Assembly: GCA_965279305.1 (NCBI GenBank)
Contig: OZ257143.1
Coordinates: 1,290,001-1,322,000 of the forward strand
Length of the DNA: 32,000 nucleotides
Direction: 5' to 3'
Source of the DNA: Gammaproteobacteria bacterium
Lineage (GTDB): Bacteria > Pseudomonadota > Gammaproteobacteria > JBIOEC01
In this document: piece by piece, positions 6,179 through 31,132 of the stretch
Numbering within the stretch: position 1 is the first letter of the stretch
How the letters are laid out: every line of letters begins with the position of its first letter
Program-made: the position numbers and the translations under genes
Notes under the pieces: generated by a model
The model's input: the letters and a program-made list of their open reading frames with translations, nothing else
Database searches by the model: none
Told to the model about the DNA's origin: nothing

Positions 6179-6181
6179 TAA

Positions 6182-6236
6182 AGTGTGCAAACTGTCAGTA
6201 ATATCACACATTATTCTGAGTGGGAATAATGATATC
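6182..6236 (+). repeat. Collapsed remnant of the module found intact at 13365-14038 (retropepsin-like gene deleted)
   Basis: 6182-6215 aligns with 13365-13398 (agtgtgcaaactgt.ag.aatatcaca..., ~29/34). 6214-6236 aligns with 14017-14038 (ttctga.tgggaataa..atatc). The intervening ~620 bp is absent here. Confidence 0.7.
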
Positions 6237-6266
6237 TTGGGAGTGTGCTGGCTAAATCTCGAAAAA

Positions 6267-6295
6267 GCCAATGTCAAATGTCAAGACTTGACCCC
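6267..6295. repeat. 29-bp junction motif gccaatgtcaaatgtcaagacttgacccc (copy without an adjacent tRNA fragment)
   Basis: Identical to 8877-8905. Contains the direct repeat atgtcaa x2 and the 13-bp palindrome gtcaagacttgac (6280-6292). Confidence 0.9.
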
Positions 6296-6316
6296 TTTAA
6301 TCTTTGCTTAAACTTG

Positions 6317-6751
6317 CTATGACTTATAATTCTCTTTAAATTCACGCATTGCTTCGCCTATGCGAGTTAGCTCTGTTTCATCTAAGAATTTCTTTACTTT
6401 AGGGAATAGCCCTTTCTCTTCTTCTTTCGCGTGATGTTCTACATCTTTTTGGAATTTAATTAGTTCTTTTTCCCATTCAGAAGAATCCATAATTTTTGTT
6501 AAGTGGTCTATAAGTTTACTAGCATCTTTTTCTTCGTGGAGGAGATGCTTAATTTCCTCAAGGAGCTCTTTATTAGCGCTTAATTTAGGGTACCAAACAG
6601 TTTGCTCCATCTCTTCATGTCTGACCAGCTCATTTTTAATAGTTTCAAACAGATGTATTTTGGTTTCTTTCTTATGGCTCGGATCATTTAAATCTGCTAG
6701 TAAGGTACGAACTTTATGATGTTCTTTTATTAAAAAATCGATAGCATTCAT
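6317..6751 (-). CDS. Hemerythrin HHE cation-binding domain protein
   Basis: His/Glu motifs are spaced as in hemerythrin-like four-helix bundles: LIKEHHKV, VRHEEMEQ, HLLHEEKD, VEHHAKEEE. The ORF opens at 6766, but GGAGGA lies 7 nt upstream of the second ATG (6751), which I take as the start. Confidence 0.8.
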   Translation of the reverse strand: MNAIDFLIKEHHKVRTLLADLNDPSHKKETKIHLFETIKNELVRHEEMEQTVWYPKLSANKELLEEIKHLLHEEKDASKLIDHLTKIMDSSEWEKELIKFQKDVEHHAKEEEKGLFPKVKKFLDETELTRIGEAMREFKENYKS

Positions 6752-7007
6752 TAGATTATCCTCCATGAAATATTAAATTTATAGTAAACTTTTATTAGTT
6801 TGTCAAAATATTGCAATAATATCGCAGATTATAATATTTTTTTTATAAAATTTTACATTTCCACTGAAAATGCTATAGTCAAATATCGTCCTAAACTTAT
6901 CGGCGGTGTAAAATGAGTATTAAAAACCTGCTGAAAACGAGATATTAATAGAACTTGTTTATTTCTCCTAGTTGAGTTTTTTTACAATTTGAAAGTTTTC
7001 CGTATTA

Positions 7008-7068
7008 TTTATATATTTTTACTATAATAGTTCTATTAATAATTTACAGGATAAGATATGGGATGCGA
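7008..7068 (+). repeat. Copy 2 of the promoter/5'UTR/start-codon block of the 5324 gene, now fused to unrelated remnants
   Basis: See 5273-5334. The downstream 'ORF' 7058-7240 starts MGC... compared with MGW... for the 5324 gene. Confidence 0.85.
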
Positions 7069-7131
7069 ATTCGTGAACTTTAAAACAGCCCCAGGACTAA
7101 TATGTGCAGGCGGTGCATGCACAATTATGAC
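7067..7131 (+). repeat. Remnants of the KilA-N gene and of the hairpin that follows it (intact copies at 14286-14319 and 14907-14932)
   Basis: 7067-7100 (gaattcgtgaactttaaaacagccccaggactaa) aligns with 14286-14319 at 31/34. 7101-7126 aligns with 14907-14932 at ~21/26. About 590 bp of KilA-N coding sequence is missing between the two pieces. Confidence 0.75.
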
Positions 7132-7143
7132 TAAAAGGTATTT

Positions 7144-7225
7144 GCCTCGGGCAGGAATTGAACCTGCGACCTTCCCCTTAGGAGGAGAAAAGAAAACCAA
7201 TGTCAAATATCAAGACTTGACCCCC
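7144..7225 (-). repeat. tRNA-Arg(CCU) 3'-end fragment (7144-7185) plus 29-bp junction motif (7197-7225); att-type scar
   Basis: The minus strand reads CCTCCTAAGGGGAAGGTCGCAGGTTCAATTCCTGCCCGAGGC: anticodon loop CUCCUAA (anticodon CCU), variable region, T-arm GCAGG-TTCAATT-CCTGC and 3' acceptor strand. No D-arm or 5' acceptor strand follows, so this is not a functional tRNA. Confidence 0.75.
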
Positions 7226-7232
7226 TTTGGCA

Positions 7233-14078: not shown

Positions 14079-14906
14079 ATGGATAAAGATAAACGAATGA
14101 CCATAACTGTCCAAGGTTCATTGATTACAATTTTGTCAGTTAACAGCGATGACTATATTTCTTTAACGGATATGGCGAAAAAATTTGGAGATGAGAGTCT
14201 TATTTATAGTTGGATGCGAAATCGTAACACATTGGAATTTATAGGTATTTGGGAACAGATCCACAATCCAGATTTTAAAGGTAACGAATTCGTTACCTTT
14301 AAAACAGCCGCAGGACTAAACAATTTTAACCTTACACCTAAAAAATGGATTGATGCAACAGGAGCAATTGGAGTGCAATCTCGTGCAGGTCGGCATGGTG
14401 GCGGTACTTATGCTCATAAAGACCTTGCCTTTGAATTTGGCTCTTGGCTTAGTCCTGAATTCAAACTGTATTTGATTAAAGAATTTCAGCGACTTAAAGA
14501 AGACGAAAATCGTCGTTTATCGCTAGGATGGAATCTCAACCGTACCTTATCTAAGCTTAATTATCGAATTCATACTGATGCTATCAAAACCTATATTATC
14601 CCTGAGATCGTGAGTTCAGTACGAGCCAATTTTGTATATGCCAATGAAGCCGATGTGCTAAATGTTGCATTATTTGGAGAAACAGCGAAAGAATGGCGAG
14701 AGGCGAATCCAGAGCTTGAAGGTAATATACGTGAATATGCTAGTGTTGAGCAATTATTGGTATTAGCAAATATTGAAGCAATAAATGCTGAGTTTATTCG
14801 TATGAAATTATCTCAATCAGAGCGGTTAAAAAAATTAAATGAAATAGCTATCAGCCAGCTAAAAATTCTAACTTCTTTCAATAGTAAAAAGTTGTTAACT
14901 ATTTAA
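14079..14906 (+). CDS. KilA-N domain-containing DNA-binding protein
   Basis: The N-terminus ITVQGSLITILSVNSDDYISLTDMAKKFGDESLIYSWMRNRNTLEFIGIWEQIHNPDF is typical of KilA-N family proteins. GAGGG lies 5 nt upstream of the ATG at 14079 (the track starts at GTG 14073). Confidence 0.75.
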   Translation: MDKDKRMTITVQGSLITILSVNSDDYISLTDMAKKFGDESLIYSWMRNRNTLEFIGIWEQIHNPDFKGNEFVTFKTAAGLNNFNLTPKKWIDATGAIGVQSRAGRHGGGTYAHKDLAFEFGSWLSPEFKLYLIKEFQRLKEDENRRLSLGWNLNRTLSKLNYRIHTDAIKTYIIPEIVSSVRANFVYANEADVLNVALFGETAKEWREANPELEGNIREYASVEQLLVLANIEAINAEFIRMKLSQSERLKKLNEIAISQLKILTSFNSKKLLTI

Positions 14907-14907
14907 T

Positions 14908-14930
14908 TTGTGCAAGAGGTGCTTGCACAA
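14908..14930 (+). promoter_or_regulatory. Perfect 9-bp-stem palindrome ttgtgcaag-aggtg-cttgcacaa between KilA-N and higA (operator or terminator candidate)
   Basis: Read directly. It starts 2 nt after the KilA-N stop and ~30 nt upstream of the higA-like start. A diverged copy lies at 7102-7125. Confidence 0.5.
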
Positions 14931-14961
14931 TTGCCATAATAATATGAGAGGATTATCACTA

Positions 14962-15264
14962 ATGAAATCATTGCGCGCCAACTCAAGAAAACCCACTCAT
15001 CCGGGTGCTCTTTTACGAGAAGATATATTGCCTAAATTAAATATGTCGCAAGCACAAGTAGCTAGGCGTTTAGGCGTATCACGCCGCAGGGTATCAGAAA
15101 TCATTCATGAGCACCGTCCCCTCACTGCCGACATGGCCATTCGCCTTGCCCATTTTTTAGGTGGCACTCCTAATAGCTAGATAAACATGCAACAAGAGCT
15201 CGATATCTGGACATTAGAGCAAGAAAATAAATCCGAATACAATCAAATCCAGCAAGTAGGATAA
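14962..15264 (+). pseudogene. higA: HigA-family (XRE HTH) antitoxin interrupted by an in-frame TAG at 15178-15180; no HigB partner
   Basis: HPGALLREDILPKLNMSQAQVARRLGVSRRRVSEIIHEHRPLTADMAIRLAHFLGGTP is the HigA/VapI signature. After the TAG the same frame continues INMQQELDIWTLEQ..., matching the usual HigA C-terminal (F)W(L)N(L/M)Q..YDLW segment. TAG differs from TGG (Trp) by one base. Confidence 0.7.
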
Positions 15265-15284
15265 AATCAGCTCACAGACTGACG

Positions 15285-15310
15285 AATGTCAAATATAAAG
15301 ACTTGACCCC
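15285..15310. repeat. Degenerate copy of the 29-bp junction motif (aatgtcaaatataaagacttgacccc)
   Basis: It aligns with 6270-6295 with three substitutions that break the palindrome. No tRNA fragment is adjacent. Confidence 0.75.
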
Positions 15311-15689
15311 TTTGTTTTTAAGCAGAGCAATCAGAGCTTTATTTAGTTCTGTTGCGTATCTGTCGTGCTGTTCTTTTCCAAAGGATATACTTAACTCAAA
15401 GAAAGGTGGGATGGGCACAGTAAAGTCTTTTCTATCAGGGCGTGGCATTGGCTATCTTATTTTATGAAACAATTTAGAGATGGGTAATCTTTTGATTTTA
15501 CCTCAAAGATTGCTTTCTGTCTTATTTTATTGGTGTCAGGGTAGGAATCGGCCTCTGCTGAGCAAACAGAAAGCATATTAGTCACCCGCAATACAAAAGA
15601 CTTCCAAAAATCCCTTTCTATCATCCATCTGCCTTATATGTTGGATTAATAGAGGCTCTTGTATACCCTAGCAATCCTCTAGTTTTCAT

Positions 15690-18600
15690 CTAAGGGCTAG
15701 TAGATGTAGTTGATCTTGCGCCCGCAGTAGGAGCCGGTGCACCACCTTTAAAAGCAGTAAGGGCGGCAGCTATCGCTTGTTGCTGTGATGGACTAGGATC
15801 GAGAGGTATTAATACACCTGCGGCTCCAGGGTGGTCAGCAACTACTCCCCCAAAATTTACTTTATCTCCAGGCTTTGCGACCTTAAACATATCGAGAGAT
15901 TCTATATGCCGCTCAGTAGAAAAATCTTCTTTTCCTAACATTTTAATCGCTAATGTATCAGCTTCGCTTGCAACTGCTGTACGAAAATTAAAAGTTCTGC
16001 CAGTCGCAACTTGCAATTGAAGTTCAATACGTTTGAGATTAGCTGCTAATATCGCTACTTCTGCTACATCATGGCCAGCTGCTGCTTCTAATTGAGTCAC
16101 CCGATGAGCAAGCTCTAACCCAGAGCCTGCAATCGTTTTGTACAAAGAGGGTAATGTTGGTTTATTATGCAATAGATTCAATAATCTTTGTTGAAACTCT
16201 AGAACATGCATACCTGTGTTATCTTTTAATACTAATTCAAATGAAGAATTTTCTTTATTAATAGAATAAAGATCAAGAAGATCCATTCCATTTCGCCCAT
16301 AAAACGTTTCTAAAACGATGTCCCAACCTAAAGGGCCCAAATTGTTAGTTTTTGCCAAGCTAACTTCTAGTAAAAATTCTCGAACATTTTTATCAAAATG
16401 ACAGAGATTCAAAGTATTTTGATTTCTCTCTTTGGTAGGTAATGCGGCATAGTGGGCTGCAATCGCGATACATAATTCTTTTCCAAGTGTTGCTAAATCA
16501 GGTCGATGCCCATCTTTACTCGTTGTATCTAAAAAAGTCTTAACCGCAGGGGTAGTTGTAAACACCAGGTCAAACCACGATTCTTGGCCTTTGGGTGCGC
16601 CTAGAACGGTTCTAAGTCCTTTGTAAAGCCCATTCATCACTTTAAATGGGTAACTTAATACAACAGTTAGACCTGCTTCAACTGTTTTCCCTATGCTATC
16701 AAAATCACTATAATTGGCCTGAGGCCAGTCTACCATTTGTCTAAAATCTTTAGGATAACCTGTTTTTGGATCTAAACCTGCGCCAATATGATTTGTTCGA
16801 TGATCATTTAAAAAATCAAACTTTACATCGTTAGCTCCGTCTAAATGCCAAACTGTTCCAGTTTGAGTACCAAAAGTGCTCACGATGGTAGGCCCTGCAC
16901 AGAAATTATGAACATTTAAATCGGCAATATTAATCTTAGCTTGTTGGGCACGATTACCAGACTGAAGTGCCGCTTCCATAAATTCAACACCCCCAGGTGC
17001 ATCAAAAACAACTGCACTCATATCCGGATAATAAGATGCTATTTGATCAGAACGATGAGCCCAATAAGTTCCAATAAAACCAAGAAAGCCACCTAATGAA
17101 TGTCCGGTACTCGATATGCGAAAACGACGTTCTTTATAAGAAACCAGAGCGGGATGAGAGAGTACTTCTAAGGAGGCTTTTACAAAAGTTCCTGACTGCA
17201 AACGAACAACGGAGTGAATATCATTCAACCATAAAGTAGTTCCTTTCGAACCTCTATGTGCAATCACCACTTGTTCTTTTTGTTCGTGAACCCAAATACT
17301 TCCTTTATATTCACTTACCGGATCGGATATAAATTCAATAAGCTGCCAATCTCTGTCTTCTAAAGGTTGTTGCGCAGCAGGCATAGGTACTTTATAAGTC
17401 TGTCCAGCAAGATGCAGATTATCTTCATAAACAGCTACGCTCATCAAAAAATACTCATAAGGAGTAGGAGGAGGAAGTAAGACTGCAGATACAATTTTAG
17501 TAGGTGCTGGAGCGGCTGCTGGAGTTTGGAGCATATATATTTCCTTATCTGTAGATTCATTTAATAAAATTGGAGAGTCATGGTTGGTACTCCCATCACT
17601 TGAAGCTCTTGAAAAAAAAGCTTCTGACGATACACTTCTGTAGACTAAGTCTAGTTGCCTATCTAGTATTTTTCCAGAAGAAAAAGGTAATGAATGATTC
17701 ACATTAGGTTCTAAATGATCTAAAAGCGATTCTGCTAATGGAGAATATCTCGCTTTTACTATTTTTTTTAATCTAGGAAGAACATTTCTAAAATTTTCAC
17801 TCTCTCCTAATTGTTGATAACAGGTCGCTAATAGGTAAGCAGCTAACAATTTAGCATACAGAATAAAACCGTGACGTTGAGGCACTAGCCGCGCCAAATT
17901 AGATTCTATTACATTTTGAGAATTTGCAAAAATAAAAGTTTGTCGATGAATCCCTTGAGTTTCTAGAGCTAGTTTTAAAAATTTAGCTGCTTTTTTCAAA
18001 TTACCTTGAACCAGTAAAAAATGGCCATATCTAAGATAAACTAAAGCATTAGGCTCATGTTCTAAAGCTTCCGCGTGTATTTTAGAAGCTTCAACTATCT
18101 TACCTTGATGCTGCAGGGAATAAGCTAAGTTGGATAAAGCATAACTTATTAATAAGTGAGGACCATTATTGAAGTATATTTTGTAGGCCTCTAATACACC
18201 ATGAAGTAAATATGTTGCTTGCTCAATATCTCCCAGACAACCTAAGGCATTGGCTAGGTTGTGCGTCGTTCTTGCTATCTCAATAAAAATTAATCTATTA
18301 TTTGCATCAGTTTTAGCTAAATTAAATATTGCCAATGCATGCACTGACAAAGAAAGTTTTTTTTGATGCTCGCCTATTCCTATTTCACCATAAGCGTTTC
18401 CTAATTTTCTTATAATGATTCCTATATTAAGATGAAACTTAGTTTCAAGGTATGTTTCACTTAAATTTAATACTCTTTCTAACAGCCTAACCTCTCTAGG
18501 AGTATCTCCTAACCAATGAGAGGTGCTTGCAGCAAGCTCTAATAATTTTATATGTATATTGAAAAAAGGCCTTGGAACAGCATTTGGGAATCGAGAAATT

Positions 18601-20087
18601 AAATTTCCTTCACATGCTCTCATATGAGGCAATAATTCCTTACGATAATTTATCTCTTCTTTTGAAGGCCCCATGTCATTTTTACAGGCATCCTCAAATG
18701 CAGATAATATTTTTTCGAGCGCCATTAGATAATTATTTTCTGAAAAGGAGCTCGTTAGAGTATCATCCCGGATAAACGAATAAAATAAACCATGGCTAAA
18801 ATCAAAGCTTGTATTATCTTCAGAAAGAGTAATAATAGATTTTTTCCTAAGTTCTTCTATTATATCTGCTGTGTCGTCATCATTAACCATTAAAAACCTG
18901 ATTAGAGAAACAGGCATAGAGTATCTATTAAAAAAACCAAGATAATAAAAAAATAAATCAAGCGTCGGGGAATTTATTTTTTCTTTCAACATATCTTTTG
19001 TTAATTGCCAGGTAACAACCAAATTTTCATGGTAGCTTGAAGGGTGTTTTAATGTCCTAGCTAGAACTTTAGTTCTTCCCTCTAGAAAATTTCCAAGATA
19101 TATATCTACACTTTTTTTGATTCTGATATCATTTGCAATAATTATTCCTGAATAAGTAATGCCGAGAGGCAGTCTGTCTAAATAAACTAATAAAGTTGAG
19201 ATGGCTCTATCTTGAGCTGTAGCCTGTTTAGGAGTAAGTTTTGCATACTTTATTAGCGTTTCTCTAGCTTCTTCACGGGACATGGATTGTATAGGAATAG
19301 TCCCTGGGAAATCAGGGCTAGTTGTTGTTTGTAAAATAACTCCGCCTGTGGATGGAATATATTTTCTAATAGCGTCAAAATCTTCAACATCGTCTAATAC
19401 CAAAATCCATCCTGGTGTACTTTCTAAAAAATTCTTAACTGCTAATGAATTTTTTTCTTTTAAATCTTCTCCAGGAAAAAGAACAGAAGGGGGATGTGCA
19501 ATACCAAATTTTAATGCCAAATCACTCATTTCATATAAAAATGTTTTGTCATTTGCATTTAGCCATATATGATAACGGTATCGTTCAGCTGTTTGATGAT
19601 AATACTGTGAGGCCAACCATGTTTTTCCTTCACCAGATGCACCAGATAGAGTAACTAATTGTATTGGCTCTTTTCTTTGTTCGGAAATTTTATTATCAAT
19701 GACAAGAATAGAGTTCTCTTTTCGATTTCGAGCGGATGGATCATCCACAGATAAAGAACGCTGGGTAAAAAGTTCGGGAATATAAGAATGGGCCTTTCCA
19801 AAAAAAGCTCCATTCAACATTTTTTGTTTTTCAAAAAAAACTTCTAAAATTTTAGTAAGTTGATTTTGTTGGGCTTCATTAAGATCACCTACTATTTCTA
19901 TTGCAGCGCTTCCTTCAGCACCTGCAATCGCACTTAAATCATGAATTTTAACCCCAGGAGGAAATTGATCTTGTAAAGCTTTTAAATCGACTAGCAAGTC
20001 CTCAGGTTTCCCAGCAATGGCTACAGCCAAAGTGTTACTGGCAGAGGCAACTACAGAGCGGAGTCGGATTTCAGTGGTTTCAGGCAC
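15690..20087 (-). CDS. NB-ARC-type STAND NTPase + TPR array + class-3 lipase domain protein (1465 aa)
   Basis: Walker A is LSGASGEGKTW (aa 147-157; 19620-19643) and Walker B is WILVLDDVED (aa 227-236). GGVILQTTTS (RNBS-B-like) and DRLPLGI (GLPLA-like) are also present. TPR-like helices span aa ~545-770 (e.g. NLANALGCLGDIEQATYLLHGVLEAY). Lipase_3 motifs are VVIAHRGSKG and STGHSLGG (Ser997; 17088-17105). The N- and C-terminal ~75-aa modules are homologous. Confidence 0.85.
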   Translation of the reverse strand: MPETTEIRLRSVVASASNTLAVAIAGKPEDLLVDLKALQDQFPPGVKIHDLSAIAGAEGSAAIEIVGDLNEAQQNQLTKILEVFFEKQKMLNGAFFGKAHSYIPELFTQRSLSVDDPSARNRKENSILVIDNKISEQRKEPIQLVTLSGASGEGKTWLASQYYHQTAERYRYHIWLNANDKTFLYEMSDLALKFGIAHPPSVLFPGEDLKEKNSLAVKNFLESTPGWILVLDDVEDFDAIRKYIPSTGGVILQTTTSPDFPGTIPIQSMSREEARETLIKYAKLTPKQATAQDRAISTLLVYLDRLPLGITYSGIIIANDIRIKKSVDIYLGNFLEGRTKVLARTLKHPSSYHENLVVTWQLTKDMLKEKINSPTLDLFFYYLGFFNRYSMPVSLIRFLMVNDDDTADIIEELRKKSIITLSEDNTSFDFSHGLFYSFIRDDTLTSSFSENNYLMALEKILSAFEDACKNDMGPSKEEINYRKELLPHMRACEGNLISRFPNAVPRPFFNIHIKLLELAASTSHWLGDTPREVRLLERVLNLSETYLETKFHLNIGIIIRKLGNAYGEIGIGEHQKKLSLSVHALAIFNLAKTDANNRLIFIEIARTTHNLANALGCLGDIEQATYLLHGVLEAYKIYFNNGPHLLISYALSNLAYSLQHQGKIVEASKIHAEALEHEPNALVYLRYGHFLLVQGNLKKAAKFLKLALETQGIHRQTFIFANSQNVIESNLARLVPQRHGFILYAKLLAAYLLATCYQQLGESENFRNVLPRLKKIVKARYSPLAESLLDHLEPNVNHSLPFSSGKILDRQLDLVYRSVSSEAFFSRASSDGSTNHDSPILLNESTDKEIYMLQTPAAAPAPTKIVSAVLLPPPTPYEYFLMSVAVYEDNLHLAGQTYKVPMPAAQQPLEDRDWQLIEFISDPVSEYKGSIWVHEQKEQVVIAHRGSKGTTLWLNDIHSVVRLQSGTFVKASLEVLSHPALVSYKERRFRISSTGHSLGGFLGFIGTYWAHRSDQIASYYPDMSAVVFDAPGGVEFMEAALQSGNRAQQAKINIADLNVHNFCAGPTIVSTFGTQTGTVWHLDGANDVKFDFLNDHRTNHIGAGLDPKTGYPKDFRQMVDWPQANYSDFDSIGKTVEAGLTVVLSYPFKVMNGLYKGLRTVLGAPKGQESWFDLVFTTTPAVKTFLDTTSKDGHRPDLATLGKELCIAIAAHYAALPTKERNQNTLNLCHFDKNVREFLLEVSLAKTNNLGPLGWDIVLETFYGRNGMDLLDLYSINKENSSFELVLKDNTGMHVLEFQQRLLNLLHNKPTLPSLYKTIAGSGLELAHRVTQLEAAAGHDVAEVAILAANLKRIELQLQVATGRTFNFRTAVASEADTLAIKMLGKEDFSTERHIESLDMFKVAKPGDKVNFGGVVADHPGAAGVLIPLDPSPSQQQAIAAALTAFKGGAPAPTAGARSTTSTSP

Positions 20088-20234
20088 AGCTCAGCCTTAA
20101 TAAAAAATTTTATTTTTGTGATTTTATTAGACGACCTATTTGTCGGTAGTATAGCCTATATATGCGCTTTTTGCGTGCACACCGCACATTGAGGATACCT
20201 CACTTTTTATTTGGAGGTGCTAATGGAGTGGCCT

Positions 20235-20291
20235 GTAAAAAAGAGTATGCCCCGGGCAGGAATCGAACCTGCGACCTTCCCCTTAGGAGGG
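20235..20291 (-). repeat. tRNA-Arg(CCU) 3'-end fragment (20249-20291) with a conserved trailer; att-type boundary next to the integrase
   Basis: Identical to 11379-11421. Beyond the anticodon loop the sequence (gacaagatatacag...) cannot form the anticodon stem or D-arm, so the tRNA is truncated here. Confidence 0.8.
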
Positions 20292-20462
20292 ACAAGATAT
20301 ACAGTCCATTACAGTCCAAGGAACTCCAGAATATTTAAAAATTACCGAGAAAAACCGCTGTTTTTTCGCTTGAACACTTCCCTGAAATCTTGTAAACTCC
20401 AGTAATATCCAGTGACTTTGGTAGTACCCATGGTAGTCCCTGGGAGAATGAGGATGAAAGAG

Positions 20463-21770
20463 ATGGTAAAGTTAACTGCTAAAACAGTAGAAAATGCACA
20501 AGCTAAAAATAAAGAATATAAGCTAAACGATGGGAATGGATTGTACTTGAGAGTGAGGACAACGGGTTCAAAAAGTTGGATTTTTTGTTTCCATCCACCC
20601 GGAGAACGTAAGCTTATTACTATGACCATAGGCTCGCTTAAAGATTTGTCTTTAAAAGAAGCAAGAAGTAAATTACCGGAATTACGCAAATTAGTTGTCG
20701 AAGGGACTGATCCAAGACGTGCACGCGCGGCTGCTAAAGCAGAAAACTTGCGAGCCATAACCATGCAAATGTTATTTGATGATTGGGTTAAATTTTTGGT
20801 AGTCGCTAAAAAAGCGACTCCTGATTGGATTAAACGCCAGGAAAATCGCTGGAGACTACACTTAAAAAAACCTTTAGGGAATTTCTTTGTGAAAGATGTG
20901 ACGAGGGCACATTTAGCATCTGCGCTTGATATTATGATCCGTAAAGGCATTAAAGAAGAAACACGCAAAGCTTTAACCATCCTCAATCTTATGTTGGATC
21001 ATGCTTTAACTCGACACTCAATTGAGCAAAATCCTGCCCGTATGTTAAAGCCTAAAGATTTTGCTGTCACTGCAAGTCGCCCATGCAACAGGGCTTTATC
21101 TTTATCTGAGTTACGGGAGTTGTGGCTCGCTTTGGATCAAACTGCGGGATCTCCAGGTACTACCAAGATGAGTGAGATTACGAGAACCGTGATCAAAATA
21201 CTCATTTTAACAGGCGCTCGCAGGGGTGAGGTGGTAGGCATGCAGTGGTCGGAGCTCGACTTGTCTGAAGCCATTTGGAATTTACCCCCCTCTCGCGTTA
21301 AAAATCGACAAGCCCACACTATTTACCTATCTAGGCTTGCTCTAACGCTTTTAGAAGCATTAAAACCTGTGACGGGGGGCTCACCGTTTGTATTTAATAC
21401 TGAGCATAAAACGGAATCAGGGCATATCCATAAAGATGTCGTAACGGGAGCTATTAGGCGTTTGCAAGTTCGCGCTAAAGCTAATCCTAACAAAAGCTTT
21501 TTGCAGAATATTAACTCCTTCACTATACATGATTTGCGTCGGTCAGCTGCAACAGCATGGGGAGAGCATTTAAAGGTTAGCCCTCACATCATTGAGCGCA
21601 TGTTAAATCATCAACCATTGGATAAGCTAATAGCCACCTACCAGCGGGCGGTATATGCTGAAGAACAAAAGGCCGCATGGATGGCATGGGGAGAGCTTGT
21701 AGAACGTCGGGTAGCTAATAAAATTGATAATGTAGTCCCTTTAAAAAAAGTAAAAGAAGCTATGTCATAA
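20463..21770 (+). CDS. int: P4-type tyrosine integrase
   Basis: The N-terminal DUF4102-type arm domain is LTAKTVENAQAKNKEYKLNDGNGLYLRVRTTGSKSWIFCF. The catalytic region has TGARRGEV (Arg), HDLRRSAAT (H-x-x-R) and LNH...Y near the C-terminus. The ORF opens at 20412 (GTG); the ATG at 20463 has GAGGA 8 nt upstream. Confidence 0.9.
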   Translation: MVKLTAKTVENAQAKNKEYKLNDGNGLYLRVRTTGSKSWIFCFHPPGERKLITMTIGSLKDLSLKEARSKLPELRKLVVEGTDPRRARAAAKAENLRAITMQMLFDDWVKFLVVAKKATPDWIKRQENRWRLHLKKPLGNFFVKDVTRAHLASALDIMIRKGIKEETRKALTILNLMLDHALTRHSIEQNPARMLKPKDFAVTASRPCNRALSLSELRELWLALDQTAGSPGTTKMSEITRTVIKILILTGARRGEVVGMQWSELDLSEAIWNLPPSRVKNRQAHTIYLSRLALTLLEALKPVTGGSPFVFNTEHKTESGHIHKDVVTGAIRRLQVRAKANPNKSFLQNINSFTIHDLRRSAATAWGEHLKVSPHIIERMLNHQPLDKLIATYQRAVYAEEQKAAWMAWGELVERRVANKIDNVVPLKKVKEAMS

Positions 21771-24273: not shown

Positions 24274-26880
24274 ATGGCCGTCTTTCATGTCAGTGCACAA
24301 ATGATTGGACGCTCCAGCGGACGCAGTAGTGTTGCGTGTGCTGCGTATCGTTCTGGCCAAGAATTAACAGATGAACGTCTTGGCAAAACGTTTGATTATT
24401 CGCGCAAAGACGGCGTTTTAGATGCACAGATTTTTCTTCCCGCTAACGCCCCCACGTGGATGCTCGATCGTGAAAAATTGTGGAATGCAGTAGAAGCCAA
24501 AGAAAACCGCAAAGACGCGCAGCTAGCGCGTGAGTTTCAGATTTCCTTACCCCGTGAATTAACCATCGAACAAAACAAATCGCTCATTCATGATTATGTG
24601 AAACAAGCCTTTGTGAGCAGAGGCATGATTGCTGATGTCTGCTTACATGTAGAGCGTGCGAGTGATGGTGGCGCGCAACCTCATGCGCACATCATGCTCA
24701 CCACCCGTGAAGTCACTGCTGATGGTTTTGGAAAAAAGGCCAGAGAGTGGAATGATAAAGCATTGCTCGTTGAACAACGCGCCCTCTGGGAAACGGTGGT
24801 GAATCATCACCTAGCACTTAACGGTCATGATATGCGGATTGATCACCGCACTCTGGAAGCCCAAGGGATCGACTTACTCCCTCAAACAAAAATCGGCCCC
24901 CAAAGTGCGCGGGATCGATTATCGGCTTTGGAAGATCATCAACGCCGCGCTCGTGAAAACGGTGAGCGATTATTAGCCAGGCCAGCGCTCGCTCTAAAAG
25001 CCATCACGCAACAACAATCTACATTTACTCACCGAGATGTGGCGCGCTTTGTTAATCGTCACACCGTCGATGCAGAGCAGTTTCAAGCCGTATATGACGC
25101 GATCATGGCGAGCCCCGAACTCATGAGCATAGGGAAAGATGATCGTGGCGTAGAGCGATTAACCACGCGAGAGCAGCGGGAAATGGAGCACCGTTTGCTG
25201 GCTGACGCCGAGCTGGGAGCATCCGAATTTCGCCACCCTGTGAGTACTCGTGTGCGCGAACAGGTAGAGGCACACTGGAAACTTGATGGACAACAATTAA
25301 CTGCCTATCGACATCTTGTTGAAAAAGGTGATGTGACGGGGTTGATTGGCTATGCGGGTACGGGCAAAAGTTATTTGCTAGGAGCCGCACGTGAAGTGTG
25401 GGAACGCGAAGGGTACAACGTGCAGGGCGTGACGCTCTCTGGCATTGCCGCTGAAAATTTAGAAGCCAGCAGCGGTATTACTTCTCGCACGTTTGCAAGC
25501 CGTTCGTATTATTGGCGCAATTCACGCGAGTCATTAACCTCCAAAGATATTCTGGTGGTGGATGAGGCCGGTATGTTGGGCAGTCGACAATTTTCAGAGC
25601 TGATGAAGGAGGCTCGCCGCGCCGGCGCAAAAGTAGTACTGATTGGTGATCCACAACAATTACAAGCAATAGAAGCGGGTGGTGCGTTTAGAGCAATTAG
25701 TGAGCGCGTAGACACTGAATATTTAACCCATATTCGCCGTCAGCATGAACCCTGGCAAAAAGAAGCCACAAAAGCATTGGCCGAAGGCAAGACACCAATG
25801 GCACTCGAAGCGTATCGTGAAAAGAGTTACGTGCATGAATGTAAAACGGCGGAGGAAAGTAAAAATCACTTACTCGATCACTGGCACATGGCGCGCCAAC
25901 AACATCCTGATAAAAGCGAGATTATGGTAGCGTATCTTCGTGCGGATGCCGTAGCACTGAATGAGGGTGCGCGTGCACGACGGTTAGAAGCCGGCGAGTT
26001 GGGAGAGAGTAAAACATTTATGACCGAAGGGGGTGCACGAGAATTTGCAATTGGCGAGCGATTGTACTTTTTGAAAAATGATCGGGACTTAAAAGTAAAG
26101 AATGGAACATTAGGAACCATTAAGGAGTTTCGTGGACATTCGCTATTAGTGCAGCTGGATAAAGAAGAGAAAGGGAAGAAGCGAGAAATTGTAGTGAATA
26201 CATTGCACTATAAATATGTGGAATATGGGTATGCTTCTACTATTCATAAATCGCAAGGAGCTACCGTTGATAGAGCGTACTTTTTAACGTCTGAATATGT
26301 AGACGCGCACGCCGCCTATGTGGCGATGAGTCGTCACCGAGAAAGTGTACACGTCTATTGGAGTCATGATCGATTTAAAGAATGGAAAGACGTATGCACT
26401 ACGTTAGCGCGTGAGCGTGGTAAAGATATGACCACGGATTATGGCGTTGAACAACATGCGGCAGCCGTACCGGATTTGAAATTAACACCCGAAAAAGAAA
26501 CAGCGCATCAACAGCAGACAATCGTGGCTAAACAATCACCGCCTATCATTTCCCTGGAAGCTTTTGCACGGCAATTTGAAGCGAATAATCCTGAACTGTC
26601 GCGGACTATCCAGCAGTCATTGGATCCAAAACTCAATCAGGAAAAAGACATGCAACAACACGTCGCTTATTTTGAACGTCTGGAAAAAGCAGCCTCTCAA
26701 CATCTTGATAGAAAAGACGTTGAAATATTTAAGTCCTATGTTGTCCAATTAAGTAAAAATGAAGAATTGATGGCGCATATTAAACAACAGCATGGTAAAA
26801 TATTTGAAAGGTTGCAACAGCATGTGAAAGAGCATGAACGTCAGCAGTCTTTGAATATCAGTTTTGATATAGAAAGATAG
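24274..26880 (+). CDS. traA: Conjugative relaxase-helicase (MobA/MobL MOBQ-type relaxase domain + RecD/TraA-like helicase)
   Basis: The N-terminus MAVFHVSAQMIGRSSGRSSVACAAYRSG (catalytic Tyr context) and QPHAHIMLTTR (His motif) match MobA/MobL. Helicase Walker A is GYAGTGKS and Walker B is LVVDEAGM, followed by GDPQQLQAIEAGGAFR and STIHKSQG. Codon usage is visibly GC-richer than the flanks. Confidence 0.9.
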   Translation: MAVFHVSAQMIGRSSGRSSVACAAYRSGQELTDERLGKTFDYSRKDGVLDAQIFLPANAPTWMLDREKLWNAVEAKENRKDAQLAREFQISLPRELTIEQNKSLIHDYVKQAFVSRGMIADVCLHVERASDGGAQPHAHIMLTTREVTADGFGKKAREWNDKALLVEQRALWETVVNHHLALNGHDMRIDHRTLEAQGIDLLPQTKIGPQSARDRLSALEDHQRRARENGERLLARPALALKAITQQQSTFTHRDVARFVNRHTVDAEQFQAVYDAIMASPELMSIGKDDRGVERLTTREQREMEHRLLADAELGASEFRHPVSTRVREQVEAHWKLDGQQLTAYRHLVEKGDVTGLIGYAGTGKSYLLGAAREVWEREGYNVQGVTLSGIAAENLEASSGITSRTFASRSYYWRNSRESLTSKDILVVDEAGMLGSRQFSELMKEARRAGAKVVLIGDPQQLQAIEAGGAFRAISERVDTEYLTHIRRQHEPWQKEATKALAEGKTPMALEAYREKSYVHECKTAEESKNHLLDHWHMARQQHPDKSEIMVAYLRADAVALNEGARARRLEAGELGESKTFMTEGGAREFAIGERLYFLKNDRDLKVKNGTLGTIKEFRGHSLLVQLDKEEKGKKREIVVNTLHYKYVEYGYASTIHKSQGATVDRAYFLTSEYVDAHAAYVAMSRHRESVHVYWSHDRFKEWKDVCTTLARERGKDMTTDYGVEQHAAAVPDLKLTPEKETAHQQQTIVAKQSPPIISLEAFARQFEANNPELSRTIQQSLDPKLNQEKDMQQHVAYFERLEKAASQHLDRKDVEIFKSYVVQLSKNEELMAHIKQQHGKIFERLQQHVKEHERQQSLNISFDIER

Positions 26881-26906
26881 TAACAGAAGTCATAAGGAGG
26901 TACACA

Positions 26907-27497
26907 ATGACAATAGAAAATACAGGAGAACAAAATCTCGAACAGGCAAACGAAAATAATCAACCACTGATGGATCAAAGAGAGTTATTAAATTCGCTCT
27001 CGGCGAATATTTATCAGTTGTATGAAGTGCAAAAACATCTTTATGGGGATGTAAAAAAATTCTCTGAGGCGAGTCAGGAATTTATGTCTTTTCATCAAAC
27101 CTTGAAAGGGACCGTAAAAGATTTCTCCCTGCTTGCTCCAGAGGTTAAACGTCAAATAAATGAGATGGTCTATGCCAGCGTCACAAAAACCCTTAAGCAA
27201 CAAGAAGCGAATCTGGGAGAAGCATTGGTGGCTACCGCCAGCATAGAAACGAACAAACTGGTTCAATCACTCAATACCAGTGTTAGGAATGCAGAAAAAA
27301 CGCTTGATAGTTATATTGAGGAAACAAAATGGTCACGCTGGATGAGCGTTGGTACAGGCGCCTTATGCGGGTTATGTATTGTACTGGTCTTCCTTGTCTT
27401 TATGGTAGCTAGACCTTTTACTTTCGTGGATGCCGCCGATATTGATATGTATGAATATGGGAAACTGACAGGGAAAATGCTGGCTAAAACTGAGTGA
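26907..27497 (+). CDS. Hypothetical coiled-coil protein with a C-terminal TM helix (196 aa)
   Basis: A strong SD (TAAGGAGG) is present and the start is 27 nt after the traA stop. The TM segment is WMSVGTGALCGLCIVLVFLVFMVA. Confidence 0.6.
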   Translation: MTIENTGEQNLEQANENNQPLMDQRELLNSLSANIYQLYEVQKHLYGDVKKFSEASQEFMSFHQTLKGTVKDFSLLAPEVKRQINEMVYASVTKTLKQQEANLGEALVATASIETNKLVQSLNTSVRNAEKTLDSYIEETKWSRWMSVGTGALCGLCIVLVFLVFMVARPFTFVDAADIDMYEYGKLTGKMLAKTE

Positions 27498-27664
27498 AAA
27501 GGAGAGAGATAGAATTCGGGATCTGGCCTATAAATCTGATTAAGGGTATGATGAGTAACGAGGGGCGTTTGGCATTACAGGATGAACTGAATAAATCGGG
27601 TTTATGTGTAGAAGTTGAAGTCAAAGCGGCTTAATAATATAAGCAAAGTAAAAGGAGTCCAAAA

Positions 27665-27928
27665 ATGGCTATACAAATTAAAGGATCTGGTGATATTAAA
27701 AAGCATTTTTCTGATCTTACCAAAAAGATAGAAGAAAAAGTAAAGACAAATACAAAACTGGCGGAAGATAAAGCGACTAAAGCCGCCCGTATTTTTTTAG
27801 ATGAAAAAGCAAAAGAAAATGGTTTAGATCCTGCAACCATGACTGAGCAAGATCTTGAGAATCTAAAAACAAAATATGGCCATGAGCTTAGAAAAATAGG
27901 TATGGATGCACTCAGATCATCCTTTTAG
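27665..27928 (+). CDS. Small Lys/Glu-rich hypothetical protein (87 aa)
   Basis: An AAAGGAG SD is present. Downstream lie the tttgctagcaaa palindrome and a T-run. Confidence 0.5.
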   Translation: MAIQIKGSGDIKKHFSDLTKKIEEKVKTNTKLAEDKATKAARIFLDEKAKENGLDPATMTEQDLENLKTKYGHELRKIGMDALRSSF

Positions 27929-28149
27929 AATTTAGGTTGATTTGCTAGCAAAGTTGTCTTTCAACTGATGGTTTTTTTTAAGTCTCTAATCACAGTGTGA
28001 TAAGAAAGGGAGAGGGCAGGTCAACCATTGGTGTGTTATCATCACTGCGCCCTTTCTTATCGTTTTTGTTTCAATATTGATTCCAGCTTTTCCAGCCCAT
28101 CTTTAACTATCATGTAGAAACGCCTTACCCATTCCCTAATGCTCATAGC

Positions 28150-28419
28150 CTATTCCTTCGCTTGCTCATTAAGCAAGGCTTTAGCCTGGGTCATTAGTTC
28201 AGTTAATTGGGCCTCATTCTGTGTTTTTGCGGAGTCTAAGAGATTACTCACCGCCCATAAATAATCACGCTGTTCATTCTCCTCTTGTTCGTGAAAACAC
28301 TGAGTCAGTGCCATTTTGACCAAGGCCACCGATTGGCATAGGTAAACGGCTAGTTCTTCTCGTTGATAGGATTGTTGGTTTATAAACTGGCACAGATCGT
28401 TTAAACTATAGCTAGTCAT
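28150..28419 (-). CDS. Hypothetical protein (89 aa)
   Basis: An ORF with an AAAGGAGA-like SD (plus tctcctttc at 28427-28435). No recognisable domain. Confidence 0.5.
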   Translation of the reverse strand: MTSYSLNDLCQFINQQSYQREELAVYLCQSVALVKMALTQCFHEQEENEQRDYLWAVSNLLDSAKTQNEAQLTELMTQAKALLNEQAKE

Positions 28420-28533
28420 GGCCTAATCTCCTTTCAGATTGGTTGTGATTAGTGCCACATGGGTGCTTCAACATCCGTGTGGTACGCTTATTAGTTAGGC
28501 TAGCATTGAAAGCTTAAAATATCAAATACTTTT

Positions 28534-28698
28534 TTACTCTTTTAAGTTTTTATCCAAAAGTTCCTTGATAATGTCGCCCATTGTTTTATCTTCCCGAACG
28601 GAGGCCATCTTTAGCCTTCTGTGCAAGGATAGGGGCAAGTCGATGCTAAACCGCTTTACCTTCTCTTCAGCTTTCTTAGAATTGTTGCTTTTTGACAT
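28534..28698 (-). CDS. Ribbon-helix-helix (CopG/ParG/Arc-like) DNA-binding protein (54 aa from the internal ATG)
   Basis: KRFSIDLPLSLHRRLKMASVREDKTMGDIIKELL fits the RHH beta-strand/helix-helix pattern. AAGGAG lies 6 nt upstream of the ATG at 28698, so the track start at 28755 is probably too long. Confidence 0.7.
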   Translation of the reverse strand: MSKSNNSKKAEEKVKRFSIDLPLSLHRRLKMASVREDKTMGDIIKELLDKNLKE

Positions 28699-28829
28699 TA
28701 CTAGCTCCTTTAATGATAGGGCAGGGTCTATTATAGCATTTAAGCCAAGGCTCATTTACTGAAAACTCCTTTAAGCTTAAAAGACCTTAAATAGGGCAGG
28801 GCATCCGCCATTCACAACTCGAAGCTCCC

Positions 28830-28879
28830 AACTCGGTAAAGCCCGACTCGTAACATTACGACTCGGACTTTACCGAGTT
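28830..28879. promoter_or_regulatory. 21-bp imperfect inverted repeat (operator candidate) in the divergent intergenic region
   Basis: aactcggtaaagcccgactcg (28830-28850), an 8-nt spacer, then cgactcggactttaccgagtt (28859-28879). The arms are complementary at 19/21 positions. tataat at 28881-28886 follows immediately. Confidence 0.6.
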
Positions 28880-28919
28880 ATATAATGTAGAACATCATTT
28901 TTAATAAATAAAAAGTGTC

Positions 28920-28948
28920 TTGACTCGCAGAGTATAGGCTGGTAATAT
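28920..28948 (+). promoter_or_regulatory. Sigma70-like promoter candidate for the 28986-30713 operon
   Basis: TTGACT (28920-28925), a 17-nt spacer and TAATAT (28943-28948), 38 bp upstream of the ATG at 28986. Confidence 0.45.
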
Positions 28949-28985
28949 TGTATACAAGTCAACAAATAGCCAAAAGGTTTTTAGT

Positions 28986-29501
28986 ATGAACAAAGCTAGC
29001 ATTACTCTAACTCTTAAAGGGACGGGGCTCTCATATGAGAAAGAAATAGATGAAAACACGGCAGCCCAAATCATGGCTCTATGTCTTACTCTCCATGAGA
29101 CTCGATCAAATACAGAAAAAACTGCGCAACTTCCTTCATTTCAGCGCCTCAGCTCTAGTTCTCAAAGTGAATCAGCTGCGGAATATCTAAACCGCTATGC
29201 CCCAAGACGGAATCCAGACAAGATCCTTGCGTTAGCAGGTTTTTTAAAGATCCATCATAACAAAGAGTCATTTGAGCAGGGGGAAATCAAAAGCCTCTTT
29301 CGTGATGCGGGAGAGTTAACACCTGCAAATCTTACGCGAGATTTCAAAGCGACTGTCGCTAAAGGTTGGATTGCTCCTGACCCAAATAAAAAAGGCAGTT
29401 TTTATATCACAAATACAGGTATAAAAGCATTAGAAGGTGGATTCCCAGAGGAATCGGTAGTAAAAAGAAAAACAGTACGCCGTAAAAACAAGGGGAAGTA
29501 A
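28986..29501 (+). CDS. Hypothetical protein with a C-terminal winged-helix-like module (operon gene 1 of 3)
   Basis: FEQGEIKSLFRDAGELTPANLTRDFKATVAKGWIAPDPNKKGSFYITNTGIKAL fits a wHTH-like pattern shared with the next two genes. Confidence 0.6.
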   Translation: MNKASITLTLKGTGLSYEKEIDENTAAQIMALCLTLHETRSNTEKTAQLPSFQRLSSSSQSESAAEYLNRYAPRRNPDKILALAGFLKIHHNKESFEQGEIKSLFRDAGELTPANLTRDFKATVAKGWIAPDPNKKGSFYITNTGIKALEGGFPEESVVKRKTVRRKNKGK

Positions 29502-29503
29502 CT

Positions 29504-29986
29504 ATGACCGATGAATTAAAAACAAAACTTCATAACATACAGAATTTGATAAATGAGTGCCTAGAATTATTGCCTGGTCATTCGCTTGTTCTAAAAACTT
29601 CTACTGTAAAGAAAAAGTCTGCAAAGAATAACGAGCTTAATAATCATGTATTAATGATTTCAAATAAGATAAAAAGCTGTGAAGAAAATGAAAAAATAGA
29701 AGAAAAAATTCTTGATAAAGCTTCTGTTCTTGGACGGGTACTTTTGCCGTATTACATTTGCTATAAGTATTTTCCAACTCAAGGACTTACCACTGGTGAT
29801 GTGGCAAAAATAACTTCTGAACTACGAATAGGGGTTAAGCTCTCCAACATATCTACAGCTATTACAAACTCCTTACAAAAATATCTCGAAGGAGATTCAA
29901 CTAGGGTGAAAGGAAAGCCCGTCACTTATAAGCTAAATAGAAAAGGAGCGAAGCACTTCGAGTCTCTTCTGAATGGTGATGAGTAA
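29504..29986 (+). CDS. Hypothetical protein with a C-terminal winged-helix-like module (operon gene 2 of 3)
   Basis: It starts 2 nt after the gene 1 stop. Contains LTTGDVAKITSELRIGVKLSNISTAITNSLQKYLEGDSTRVKGKPVTYKLNRKGAKHF. Confidence 0.6.
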   Translation: MTDELKTKLHNIQNLINECLELLPGHSLVLKTSTVKKKSAKNNELNNHVLMISNKIKSCEENEKIEEKILDKASVLGRVLLPYYICYKYFPTQGLTTGDVAKITSELRIGVKLSNISTAITNSLQKYLEGDSTRVKGKPVTYKLNRKGAKHFESLLNGDE

Positions 29987-30713
29987 AGTAATATCTAGTA
30001 TCGAAGAGTTTTCTCTCTGCATGAGTCAAAAAGCTATAAAAATCGCAGATAGGGCACTTGCGTTTTTTTATTATTATGCTATGAAAAATGATAGTGGCGC
30101 GACGCTAAAACAAATCATCTCTGATTTTGAAAAATGCGGTTTTGGAAAGCCCAATATTACGAATTTACGAAAAGCAATAAAAAAAGATCGTCGCCTTGCC
30201 AAGGTTCCAAAAGATGAAGATAGCTGGCGCTTAAAAAGCGACAAGATTTTAGAGGTTGAAACAAAATTCCAGCTCGATAAATGTTTGAAAATAAATAAAA
30301 CTTCCTCTCTAATTTTAAATGGGGAGTTTATAAACATTGCTCGTCTTGAGCAAATTAAAAATATAAAGGGATCTTTTGATTTTTCGAGACTTACTCAAAT
30401 GCTTTCAGAATTAAACCATGCTTTTTTAGTTGGAAATTACATCTCTGTGAGTCTATTAACTCGAGCGGTTATAGACCACATTCCACCCATATTTTCTTTC
30501 AAAACATTTGCCCAAGTAGCAAGCAATCATGGGACAAAAAGTTTTAAAGATTCGATGGATCATTTAGAAAAATCGTGTCGAAAAATAGCAGATCTTCATC
30601 TCCACACACCAATTAGGAAAAATGAATCGCTACCAAATAAAACACAAGTCGATTTTTCCAGCAATCTTGATGTTTTATTAGGTGAAATTGTAAGGATTAC
30701 CACGCTTCCATAA
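29973..30713 (+). CDS. Hypothetical protein: N-terminal winged-helix-like module + C-terminal helical domain with an Rx5H (HEPN-like) motif (operon gene 3 of 3)
   Basis: It overlaps gene 2 by 14 nt. The N-terminal module is ATLKQIISDFEKCGFGKPNITNLRKAIKKDRRLAKVPKDEDSWRLKSDKILEV. The C-terminal region is LTRAVIDHIPPIF...HLEKSCRKIADLHLHTP. Confidence 0.6.
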   Translation: MVMSKVISSIEEFSLCMSQKAIKIADRALAFFYYYAMKNDSGATLKQIISDFEKCGFGKPNITNLRKAIKKDRRLAKVPKDEDSWRLKSDKILEVETKFQLDKCLKINKTSSLILNGEFINIARLEQIKNIKGSFDFSRLTQMLSELNHAFLVGNYISVSLLTRAVIDHIPPIFSFKTFAQVASNHGTKSFKDSMDHLEKSCRKIADLHLHTPIRKNESLPNKTQVDFSSNLDVLLGEIVRITTLP

Positions 30714-30760
30714 AGTTTTTTGCAACGTATCTGGAAAAACTAGAATACCAATCTCAAATA

Positions 30761-31132
30761 TCAAGGCCTTGAAACCTGCTTCAAAAATGCTTGCCCAACA
30801 GGCTTATAACACATGGTAATAAAAACAGCATGAGTGAGTGACTTACACTTTAACTTGGTTTTAATACGCTGCCGATATGTTACAACCGTAGATTTCTCAA
30901 TTCTCATCAAATCTGCTGTTTGTTTTACAGTATTACCTTGGGAAATCCAAAAGAGACAAGTGCGCTCTCTGTCTGAAAGGCTTTCAATCTGTTTTGAATG
31001 AGGATTAGCAATTGCATAAGATAATAACTCACTAATCAAGCAATGTTGCCTAGGGCTAGGAGATGAATTTCCACACGCGAATAAAATATCATTTACTAAT
31101 TTACTTGGAGCCCATAGTTCATATTTATTCAT
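30761..31132 (-). CDS. LuxR/GerE-family HTH transcriptional regulator (123 aa)
   Basis: LSDRERTCLFWISQGNTVKQTADLMRIEKSTVVTYRQRIKTKLKCKS matches the GerE-type HTH signature. Confidence 0.8.
   Translation of the reverse strand: MNKYELWAPSKLVNDILFACGNSSPSPRQHCLISELLSYAIANPHSKQIESLSDRERTCLFWISQGNTVKQTADLMRIEKSTVVTYRQRIKTKLKCKSLTHAVFITMCYKPVGQAFLKQVSRP

Follow-up and report, generated by a model that had tools for sequence, protein, structure and literature searches.

What are five pieces of one and the same tRNA gene doing in 32,000 nt of bacterial DNA? The stretch in question (positions 1,290,001 to 1,322,000 of contig OZ257143.1, assembly GCA_965279305.1; hereafter the window, with coordinates counted from its first letter) comes from a Legionella-like gammaproteobacterium, and in it five direct 3' fragments of a tRNA-Arg(CCU) gene delimit four islets and an integrative mobilizable element (IME). 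We read the locus as a tandem array of integrative elements at one tRNA-Arg(CCU), built by repeated site-specific integration, and give this reading a probability of about 0.8. An original prediction, made from the letters of the window, had likewise proposed repeated integration into one tRNA with older units moved outward. The direct repeats, the break-points between two fragment classes, the integrase, AlpA and relaxase genes at the innermost copy, and complete 9.6- and 12.3-kb elements in relatives support this proposal.

Five 3' fragments of tRNA-Arg(CCU)

The window was searched with a 42-nt pattern (≤ 1 mismatch, with 100 shuffles as the control), a 28-nt T-arm/acceptor pattern, and an nhmmer profile made from the five fragments. 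The 42-nt pattern has four minus-strand matches with at most one mismatch (7144-7185, 8825-8866, 11379-11420 and 20249-20290) and none in the 100 shuffles, and the 28-nt pattern recovers a degenerate fifth copy (13312-13339, 2 mismatches in 28 nt). With the profile, exactly five copies are found at E = 2e-13 to 2e-16, the next best match having E = 14. All five are direct repeats on the minus strand:

Fragment 1 (outermost), 7144..7185, minus strand: tRNA-Arg(CCU) 3' part with T-loop TTCAATT and acceptor change CCCGAGGC
Fragment 2, 8825..8866, minus strand: class I copy with its final base altered (GGGGA)
Fragment 3, 11379..11421, minus strand: class II copy; likeness to intact tRNAs reaches 11427
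Fragment 4, 13312..13345, minus strand: degenerate copy without anticodon loop, T-loop TTAGCTT (profile E = 1.9e-13)
Fragment 5 (innermost), 20249..20291, minus strand: identical to fragment 3; attR-type junction of the IME

Pattern, shuffle and profile searches thus agree on the five minus-strand fragments of the original prediction, at the coordinates that it gave. Its statement that no copy has a 5' half also held, as ARAGORN called no intact tRNA in the window and a search of the window for the 5' half of tRNA-Arg(CCU) found none. Neither the tRNA model nor other models of Rfam matched the fragments, even at E < 0.1.

The window copies are true 3' parts of tRNA-Arg(CCU), because a 38-mer of the fragments sits in intact genes called by ARAGORN and aligned with them from the anticodon stem/loop to the acceptor 3' end. 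This 38-mer also occurs in six genome contigs and four metagenome contigs; an intact tRNA-Arg(CCT) is present on nine of these ten, and in the tenth the contig end truncates the match. By scan, the genome contigs gave six single matches (five intact tRNAs and the one cut by the contig end), two metagenome scans gave the core in four short contigs with intact tRNAs and no class I junction, and two viral scans gave no match. Fragment 5 has 100% identity with intact tRNAs of relatives over their 3' part. Fragment 3 retains part of the anticodon-stem 5' strand, and 49 nt of it match the tRNAs of two relatives (L004 and L006) at 98%. Fragment 4, as judged from its sequence, is probably no longer a recombination substrate.

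Two fragment classes and their break-points

The prediction of two T-loop classes proved real. For their comparison, fragment positions are numbered from the first G of GGGGAAGG, the 3' strand of the anticodon stem. Between the classes, likeness is limited to positions -8 to +32..+36; it sets in one base 5' of the anticodon loop CTCCTAA and lasts to the tRNA end. An identity block running from the anticodon loop/stem to the tRNA 3' end is found in the window and also in the repeat of a Legionella resiliens element (L010, below).

Within classes, more is held in common, always on one side. Fragments 1 and 2 (class I, T-loop TTCAATT) share 51 nt more, solely on the island side; with this arm included, their identity is 96% over 80 nt (repeat family D3). 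Each has a single change in the acceptor strand. Fragments 3 and 5 (class II, T-loop TTCGATT) have ~ 13 nt more in common on the 3' trailer side only, and are identical over ~ 45 nt with trailers alike. A common class II trailer had been predicted and is present, with a 1-nt indel relative to the gtaaaaagag that was quoted for it. Both T-loop variants are found in intact tRNAs of relatives (L001 and L005 versus L003, L004 and L006), and we take TTCAATT and TTCGATT to be natural alleles of tRNA-Arg(CCU). That the arms are alike on one side only, with breaks at the anticodon loop and the tRNA end, points to att-site recombination, since a segmental duplication would bring both flanks.

A mobilizable element beside the innermost fragment

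To the right of fragment 5, the window holds the following:

Island-side arm (P arm), 20292..20411: 120 nt with the tandem repeat TGGACTGTA-A-TGGACTGTA
P4-type tyrosine integrase, 20412..21770, plus strand: Pfam Arm-DNA-bind_3 (4.9e-21), Phage_integrase (2.7e-15) and Phage_int_M
Two AlpA-like genes, 21963-22184 and 22399-22620, plus strand: Pfam Phage_AlpA at threshold; candidate excisionase/regulator
MobA/MobL relaxase fused to an AAA_30/RecD-like helicase, 24274..26880, plus strand: Pfam MobA_MobL 7.5e-72 and AAA_30 9.5e-58
Rest of the element in the window, 26881..32000: small open reading frames (ORFs); by Pfam, ParG/RHH-like 28534-28755, LuxR-type 30761-31132 and HTH 31165-31428

The MobA/MobL relaxase-helicase constitutes a mobilization module, and on the basis of its presence we class the element as an IME; it would be an integrative and conjugative element (ICE) should genes for a type IV secretion system (T4SS) or conjugation lie beyond 32000. 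Between 20292 and 32000 there are no T4SS genes, and the element continues past the window. It spans at least 11.7 kb, and up to 32000 neither a tRNA nor a further fragment occurs. The IME is the most deviant segment in GC content (0.403, compared with 0.349 for the left flank and 0.356-0.382 for the islets), consistent with its being the newest arrival.

According to the original prediction, the last islet retains an integrase. The sole integrase (20412-21770) lies outside the interval then described, just to the right of the last fragment. It is transcribed away from fragment 5 and has 581 homologues, many of them labelled Legionella or gammaproteobacterial metagenome-assembled genomes. The tandem TGGACTGTA repeat is a candidate pair of arm-type integrase sites, and relatives carry comparable GGAC-type repeats at the same arm position. 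The two AlpA-like proteins are 93% identical and belong to a tandem duplication directly after the integrase gene (21795-22094 and 22231-22530, 90% nucleotide identity). AlpA homologues also come after the integrase gene in three relatives (L007, L010 and L018).

Elsewhere in the element, a 165-nt direct repeat (23224-23388 and 23978-24142, 78% identity) lies upstream of the relaxase gene and may be part of an origin of transfer (oriT) or of a regulatory region. At 28414-28488 on the plus strand, there is a sub-threshold Rfam match to the SymR antitoxin RNA (39.8 bits vs a gathering score of 61, E = 2.5e-4). It is antisense to the 5' end of ORF 28150-28419, with which it may form a type I toxin-antitoxin pair.

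Placement of the integrase in relatives

Is an integrase next to the displaced fragment, rather than next to the intact tRNA, unusual? The original prediction had called it atypical. We compared the context of six integrase relatives with 58-64% identity (L007, L008, L010, L016, L017 and L018). The Legionella resiliens element (L010, integrase 60% identical) is 9.6 kb long and has the two copies of a perfect 48-nt direct repeat as its ends. An intact minus-strand tRNA-Arg(CCT) at 19307-19383 has one of these copies (19305-19352) as its 3' part, and the other (9684-9731) starts at CCTCCTAAGG and lies 270 nt left of the plus-strand integrase gene (10001). A metagenomic locus (L007, integrase 64% identical) has the same layout over 12.3 kb, with a fragment at 8664-8705 and the intact tRNA at 20951-21027. 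A fragment also occurs 140-1300 nt left of the integrase gene in L008, L016 and L017, where the elements run past the compared range; none was detectable near the integrase gene in L018. Five of the six relatives thus have a fragment just left of the integrase gene, and both loci that reach far enough have an intact tRNA-Arg(CCT) at the right end. An integrase gene beside the displaced fragment and divergent from it is the rule for this family (5/6), and the placement in the window is the family's usual one. The intact minus-strand tRNA-Arg(CCU) of the source genome is, by analogy, predicted to lie right of the window, beyond 32000.

Beyond the tRNA, integrase, AlpA and one hemerythrin gene, the compared loci show no synteny with the window. 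In L016, a counterpart with 53% identity to the hemerythrin gene left of the array lies on that side too, a weak indication that the gene marks native flank.

On one metagenome contig, an unrelated integrase gene (L012, 95-1540; 27% identity) is found directly downstream of an intact tRNA-Arg(CCU), the tRNA-proximal place that is canonical for an integrase; tRNA-Arg(CCU) is therefore a target of at least two integrase families.

Cargo of the four islets

Islet A (1.6 kb), 7186..8824, minus strand: one 502-aa orphan ORF (7233-8741), whose stop codon is separated from fragment 1 by a 34-nt motif (7193-7226)
Islet B (2.5 kb), 8867..11378: motif at 8874-8907, a LuxR/GerE regulator, and two low-complexity/coiled-coil ORFs
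Islet C (1.9 kb), 11422..13311, plus strand: a single gene (11508-13304) for a TALE-like repeat protein
Islet D (6.9 kb), 13346..20248: aspartyl-protease-like protein (126 aa), KilA-N/PDC-S22 protein (277 aa), HTH_3 protein (90 aa), a small ORF, and an NB-ARC/TPR protein (1465 aa)

The DNA between fragments is unrelated from one islet to the next, and remnants of integrase, AlpA or relaxase genes are found in none of islets A-D, even at E < 10. The four fit decayed units resembling cis-mobilizable elements (CIMEs), decay being how we infer that they arose.

The islet A protein has a match to Pfam Trypsin_2 that falls below the cut-off (E = 0.0013), and a search of 5.8 billion proteins returned only itself. 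The islet B regulator (9534-9836, plus strand, 100 aa) matches Pfam GerE at 5.7e-12, and the two low-complexity/coiled-coil ORFs (9920-10426 and 10460-10993) are both on the minus strand.

The TALE-like protein of islet C (11508-13304, plus strand) has nine repeats of 33-34 aa, encoded by DNA repeats of 99-102 nt (family D1), with the variable di-residues PI, RD, RD, HD, HK, YA, HN, RS and HQ before GG. Its best match in the PDB is BurrH (4cja, E = 1.1e-57), with Xanthomonas TAL effectors next. Only five relatives were found among the 5.8 billion proteins, two of them paralogues on the 1.87-Mb source contig. One is in another genome (L019), adjoining SidE-, Sel1- and Ank-type genes, with neither a tRNA nor a fragment adjacent. 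To judge by the sequence, the protein appears to represent a rare TALE-like family of a Legionella-like lineage.

In islet D, the small ORF ends in a copy of the motif (15279-15312), and the islet may be two fused units. The KilA-N protein (14073-14906, plus strand) matches the PADLOC candidate defence family PDC-S22 (3.3e-125). The 1465-aa protein (15690-20087, minus strand) matches NB-ARC weakly at its N terminus, has TPRs in the centre and a GHSLGG lipase-type motif in its C-terminal region, and appears STAND-like; it has no PADLOC match.

A dispersed 34-nt motif and rearranged blocks

The motif AAGGGGTCAAGTCTTGACATTTGACATTGGCTTT (minus strand) adjoins fragments 1 (7193-7226) and 2 (8874-8907). 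It had been described as a 29-bp mark of class I. The adjacency to fragments 1 and 2 stands; the motif is, however, 34 nt long, and it also occurs free of fragments in the window and in another genome. In the window, such copies lie at 6264-6297 and 15279-15312, with a weak copy at 30744-30777 (repeat family D6). The first of these is placed as follows:

Orphan 34-nt motif copy, 6264..6297, minus strand: 20 nt past the hemerythrin stop codon; 100% identical to the copy at 8874

The motif consists of the palindrome GTCAAGTCTTGAC and tandem TTGACAT. Most copies closely follow the stop codon of a minus-strand ORF, whether or not a tRNA fragment is nearby. The L019 copy (14803-14895) is interrupted by 62 nt that form a perfect hairpin, flanked by duplicated GTCTT; the insert resembles a miniature mobile element. 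The motif is a dispersed intergenic repeat of the lineage, not an att feature specific to fragments or to a class. The orphan copies may be traces of earlier unit boundaries that have lost their fragments, but next to those at 6264, 15279 and 30744 the nhmmer profile found no decayed sixth fragment.

Three other identities for the motif were tried and rejected. It is not the end of an insertion sequence, as the neighbouring ISAzo13-type element in L019 has 57-nt inverted repeats of its own and stops at these, 87 nt from the motif. Rfam, folding, and terminator/promoter scans gave no signal for a terminator, promoter or known RNA, and the reading frames differ between copies, which is at odds with the 3' end of a conserved small ORF.

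Other short blocks are repeated across boundaries or in the left flank: 47 nt at 5270 and 7005, and 34 nt at 6182 and 13365. The 47-nt block resembles a promoter/ribosome-binding site and lies upstream of ORF 5324-6178. Its second copy (7005-7051) precedes a 35-nt piece of a related KilA-N gene (7066-7100) that abuts fragment 1.

How could the array have formed?

An element-borne P4-type tyrosine integrase would have as core site the tRNA gene's anticodon stem-loop, and we infer that the cross-over falls there. The integrase gene would lie on the 5' side of the element's own tRNA copy and be read away from that copy. On integration, the chromosomal 5' half would join the 3' copy of the element to restore an intact tRNA, and the previous 3' part would move to the far end of the element, beside the integrase gene. 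The integrase would be at the distal end because it lies 5' of the tRNA copy in attP. Each later arrival would repeat the cycle and push earlier units outward. The proposed order, from right to left, is intact tRNA (predicted beyond 32000), IME (20292 to beyond 32000), fragment 5, islet D, fragment 4, islet C, fragment 3, islet B, fragment 2, islet A, fragment 1 and chromosome. The IME would be the newest unit, and the older four would have lost their integration and transfer genes to become cargo-only, CIME-like islets. Four of the five fragments keep the anticodon-loop core in direct orientation, so that the integrase and AlpA could excise the IME alone or with neighbouring islets; such a circle might then be mobilized by the relaxase. 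The model agrees with the account of tandem accretion and CIMEs in PMC5704250, and with the anticodon-centred att sites described in PMC4383910.

Several findings weigh against this history. None of the relatives examined has a multi-fragment array. Neither a related strain nor an empty site was found in the genome-contig, metagenome and viral scans. The intact tRNA is not within the window (to 32000). As to decay of the islets, the lack of remnants at E < 10 is joined by the lack of counterpart elements in metagenome, viral and protein searches. Decay would also require that four units each lost these genes independently and cleanly, which is not the most parsimonious history, above all when the integrase gene sits within ~ 120-300 nt of the arm that was retained. 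Finally, blocks D8, D10 and D11, together with the motif, show extra rearrangement that blurs a history of one event per fragment.

Might the islets never have had an integrase of their own? They could have entered as integrase-less circles or been shuffled in by the resident P4-type integrase in trans, making the tRNA-Arg(CCU) locus an integron-like accumulation platform for captured and reshuffled short single-gene units, such as those for the orphan trypsin-like protein, the TALE-like DNA-binding protein and small regulators. Islets A and C are indeed single-gene units with tight boundaries (in islet A, stop codon at 7233, motif at 7193-7226, fragment to 7185), no islet has a mobility-gene remnant, and the class I boundaries have a common 80-nt block of arm plus fragment. 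We consider such capture unlikely. A free or second copy turned up for none of the islets, the gene in islet A is an orphan, and the TALE-like homologue in L019 is not beside a tRNA or fragment. P4-type attP sites normally require extended arms, whereas the arms retained here are only about 40-120 nt. A true integron can be rejected, as the integrase is P4-type with an arm-binding domain rather than IntI, the boundaries are tRNA fragments rather than attC, and the motif has no significant folding. Decay to CIMEs is also the explanation that PMC5704250 offers for tandem arrays. The fragments would instead overcount integrations if one or two attR junctions had been copied by segmental duplication or homologous recombination, as the near-identity of fragments 1 and 2 (96% over 80 nt), the identity of fragments 3 and 5 over ~ 45 nt with like trailers, and the doubling of other short blocks across boundaries (D8, D10 and D11) might suggest. 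This is very unlikely, given that the one-sided likeness stops at the tRNA 3' end in class I and at the anticodon loop in class II and that the DNA between copies is unrelated among islets.

A different concern is whether the array still adjoins its tRNA. An inversion or translocation may have parted them, as documented in Thermococcus by PMC9897764 for an inversion that separated a fragment from the full tRNA, or the target tRNA may have been lost or replaced. No tRNA occurs within 11.7 kb right of fragment 5, and the complete L007 and L010 elements measure 9.6-12.3 kb; however, the L016 and L017 elements likewise extend for more than 11 kb without reaching a tRNA, and the right part of the window is still element-like (relaxase, RHH and HTH genes), so we regard detachment as improbable. 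That the fragments are not recombination scars at all but selected tRNA-like processing or regulatory elements would account for the nearly perfect conservation of four copies and for the motif with TTGACA hexamers that precedes class I copies. The fragments lack a 5' acceptor strand and any ARAGORN signal, Rfam is silent even at E < 0.1, promoter and terminator scans are at chance level, and folding is no better than in shuffles. With the same fragment type serving in relatives as the plain attR of a complete element, a functional RNA role is extremely unlikely.

Comparison with known systems

As we read it, the array reflects a well-known process, the tandem accretion of elements at a tRNA gene, though it is longer and tidier than usual. 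The nearest parallels are the ICESt1/ICESt3-related elements of Streptococcus thermophilus, with IME/CIME tandems at tRNA-Lys (Pavlovic 2004, Bellanger 2011, reviewed in PMC5704250). As that review describes them, CIMEs keep att-type repeats without integration or transfer genes, and new IMEs accrete beside them via the regenerated target. There as in the window, an integrase-bearing element lies beside units (decayed there, and probably so in the window) that have att-type repeats and lack integration and transfer genes, the direct repeats derive from the 3' end of the target gene, and composite excision is possible in principle. Unlike those tandems, the window array has four consecutive integrase-less units, at tRNA-Arg(CCU) of a Legionella-like gammaproteobacterium, with an anticodon-centred att block (~ 45 nt) and the integrase at the tRNA-distal end.

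Islander (Williams laboratory) finds islands in tRNA and tmRNA genes, with anticodon-centred att sites and displaced fragments that show ‘damage’, in the description of PMC4383910. Similarly, fragments 1, 2 and 4 carry changes, the last being without an anticodon loop. Islander is described there as calling tandems only if each unit has an integrase, giving 125 tandems of ≥ 2 and 4 of ≥ 3 among 3,919 islands. The window array, with four units lacking an integrase, would be collapsed or missed.

The Legionella resiliens and L007 islands match the window in target tRNA, in the start of the cross-over block (CCTCCTAAGG), in GGAC-type arm repeats and in the layout of fragment, integrase, AlpA, cargo and intact tRNA (predicted for the window). 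They are single elements (9.6 and 12.3 kb) with primase-type replication modules, whereas the window has an element with a MobA/MobL relaxase-helicase and four extra islets. The tRNA islands of Legionella pneumophila (LGI/Trb/Lvh-type; Lautner 2013, cited in PMC5704250; PMC3864950) are described in these sources as large and encoding a T4SS. By description, they too are integrase-dependent, lie at tRNA genes of an intracellular gammaproteobacterium and carry effector-like and regulatory cargo, but the 11.7 kb of element in the window has no T4SS genes.

The finding mainly helps annotation, by giving exact boundaries for four cargo islets, the position of a mobilizable element and a predicted location for the intact tRNA. 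With five fragments and four integrase-less units, the array is longer than almost anything catalogued by tools that expect one integrase per unit, and integrase-less multi-unit arrays are probably under-counted. Island-finding heuristics should allow for a tRNA-distal integrase, which is consistent in the family of the window integrase. The cargo, including the rare TALE-like protein and the orphan protease-like protein, links gain of effector-type genes to one tRNA hotspot. Were the locus a capture platform, a Legionella-like intracellular bacterium would have a dedicated site for collecting host-targeting effector genes.

Left flank of the window

Positions 1-2996 have no ORF of ≥ 60 aa on either strand, at 31-36% GC, which is unusual for a bacterial genome. 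The gene that follows (2997-5213, plus strand) encodes 738 aa, in which a linker rich in proline and threonine connects two Tle1-like (DUF2235) phospholipase-effector domains.

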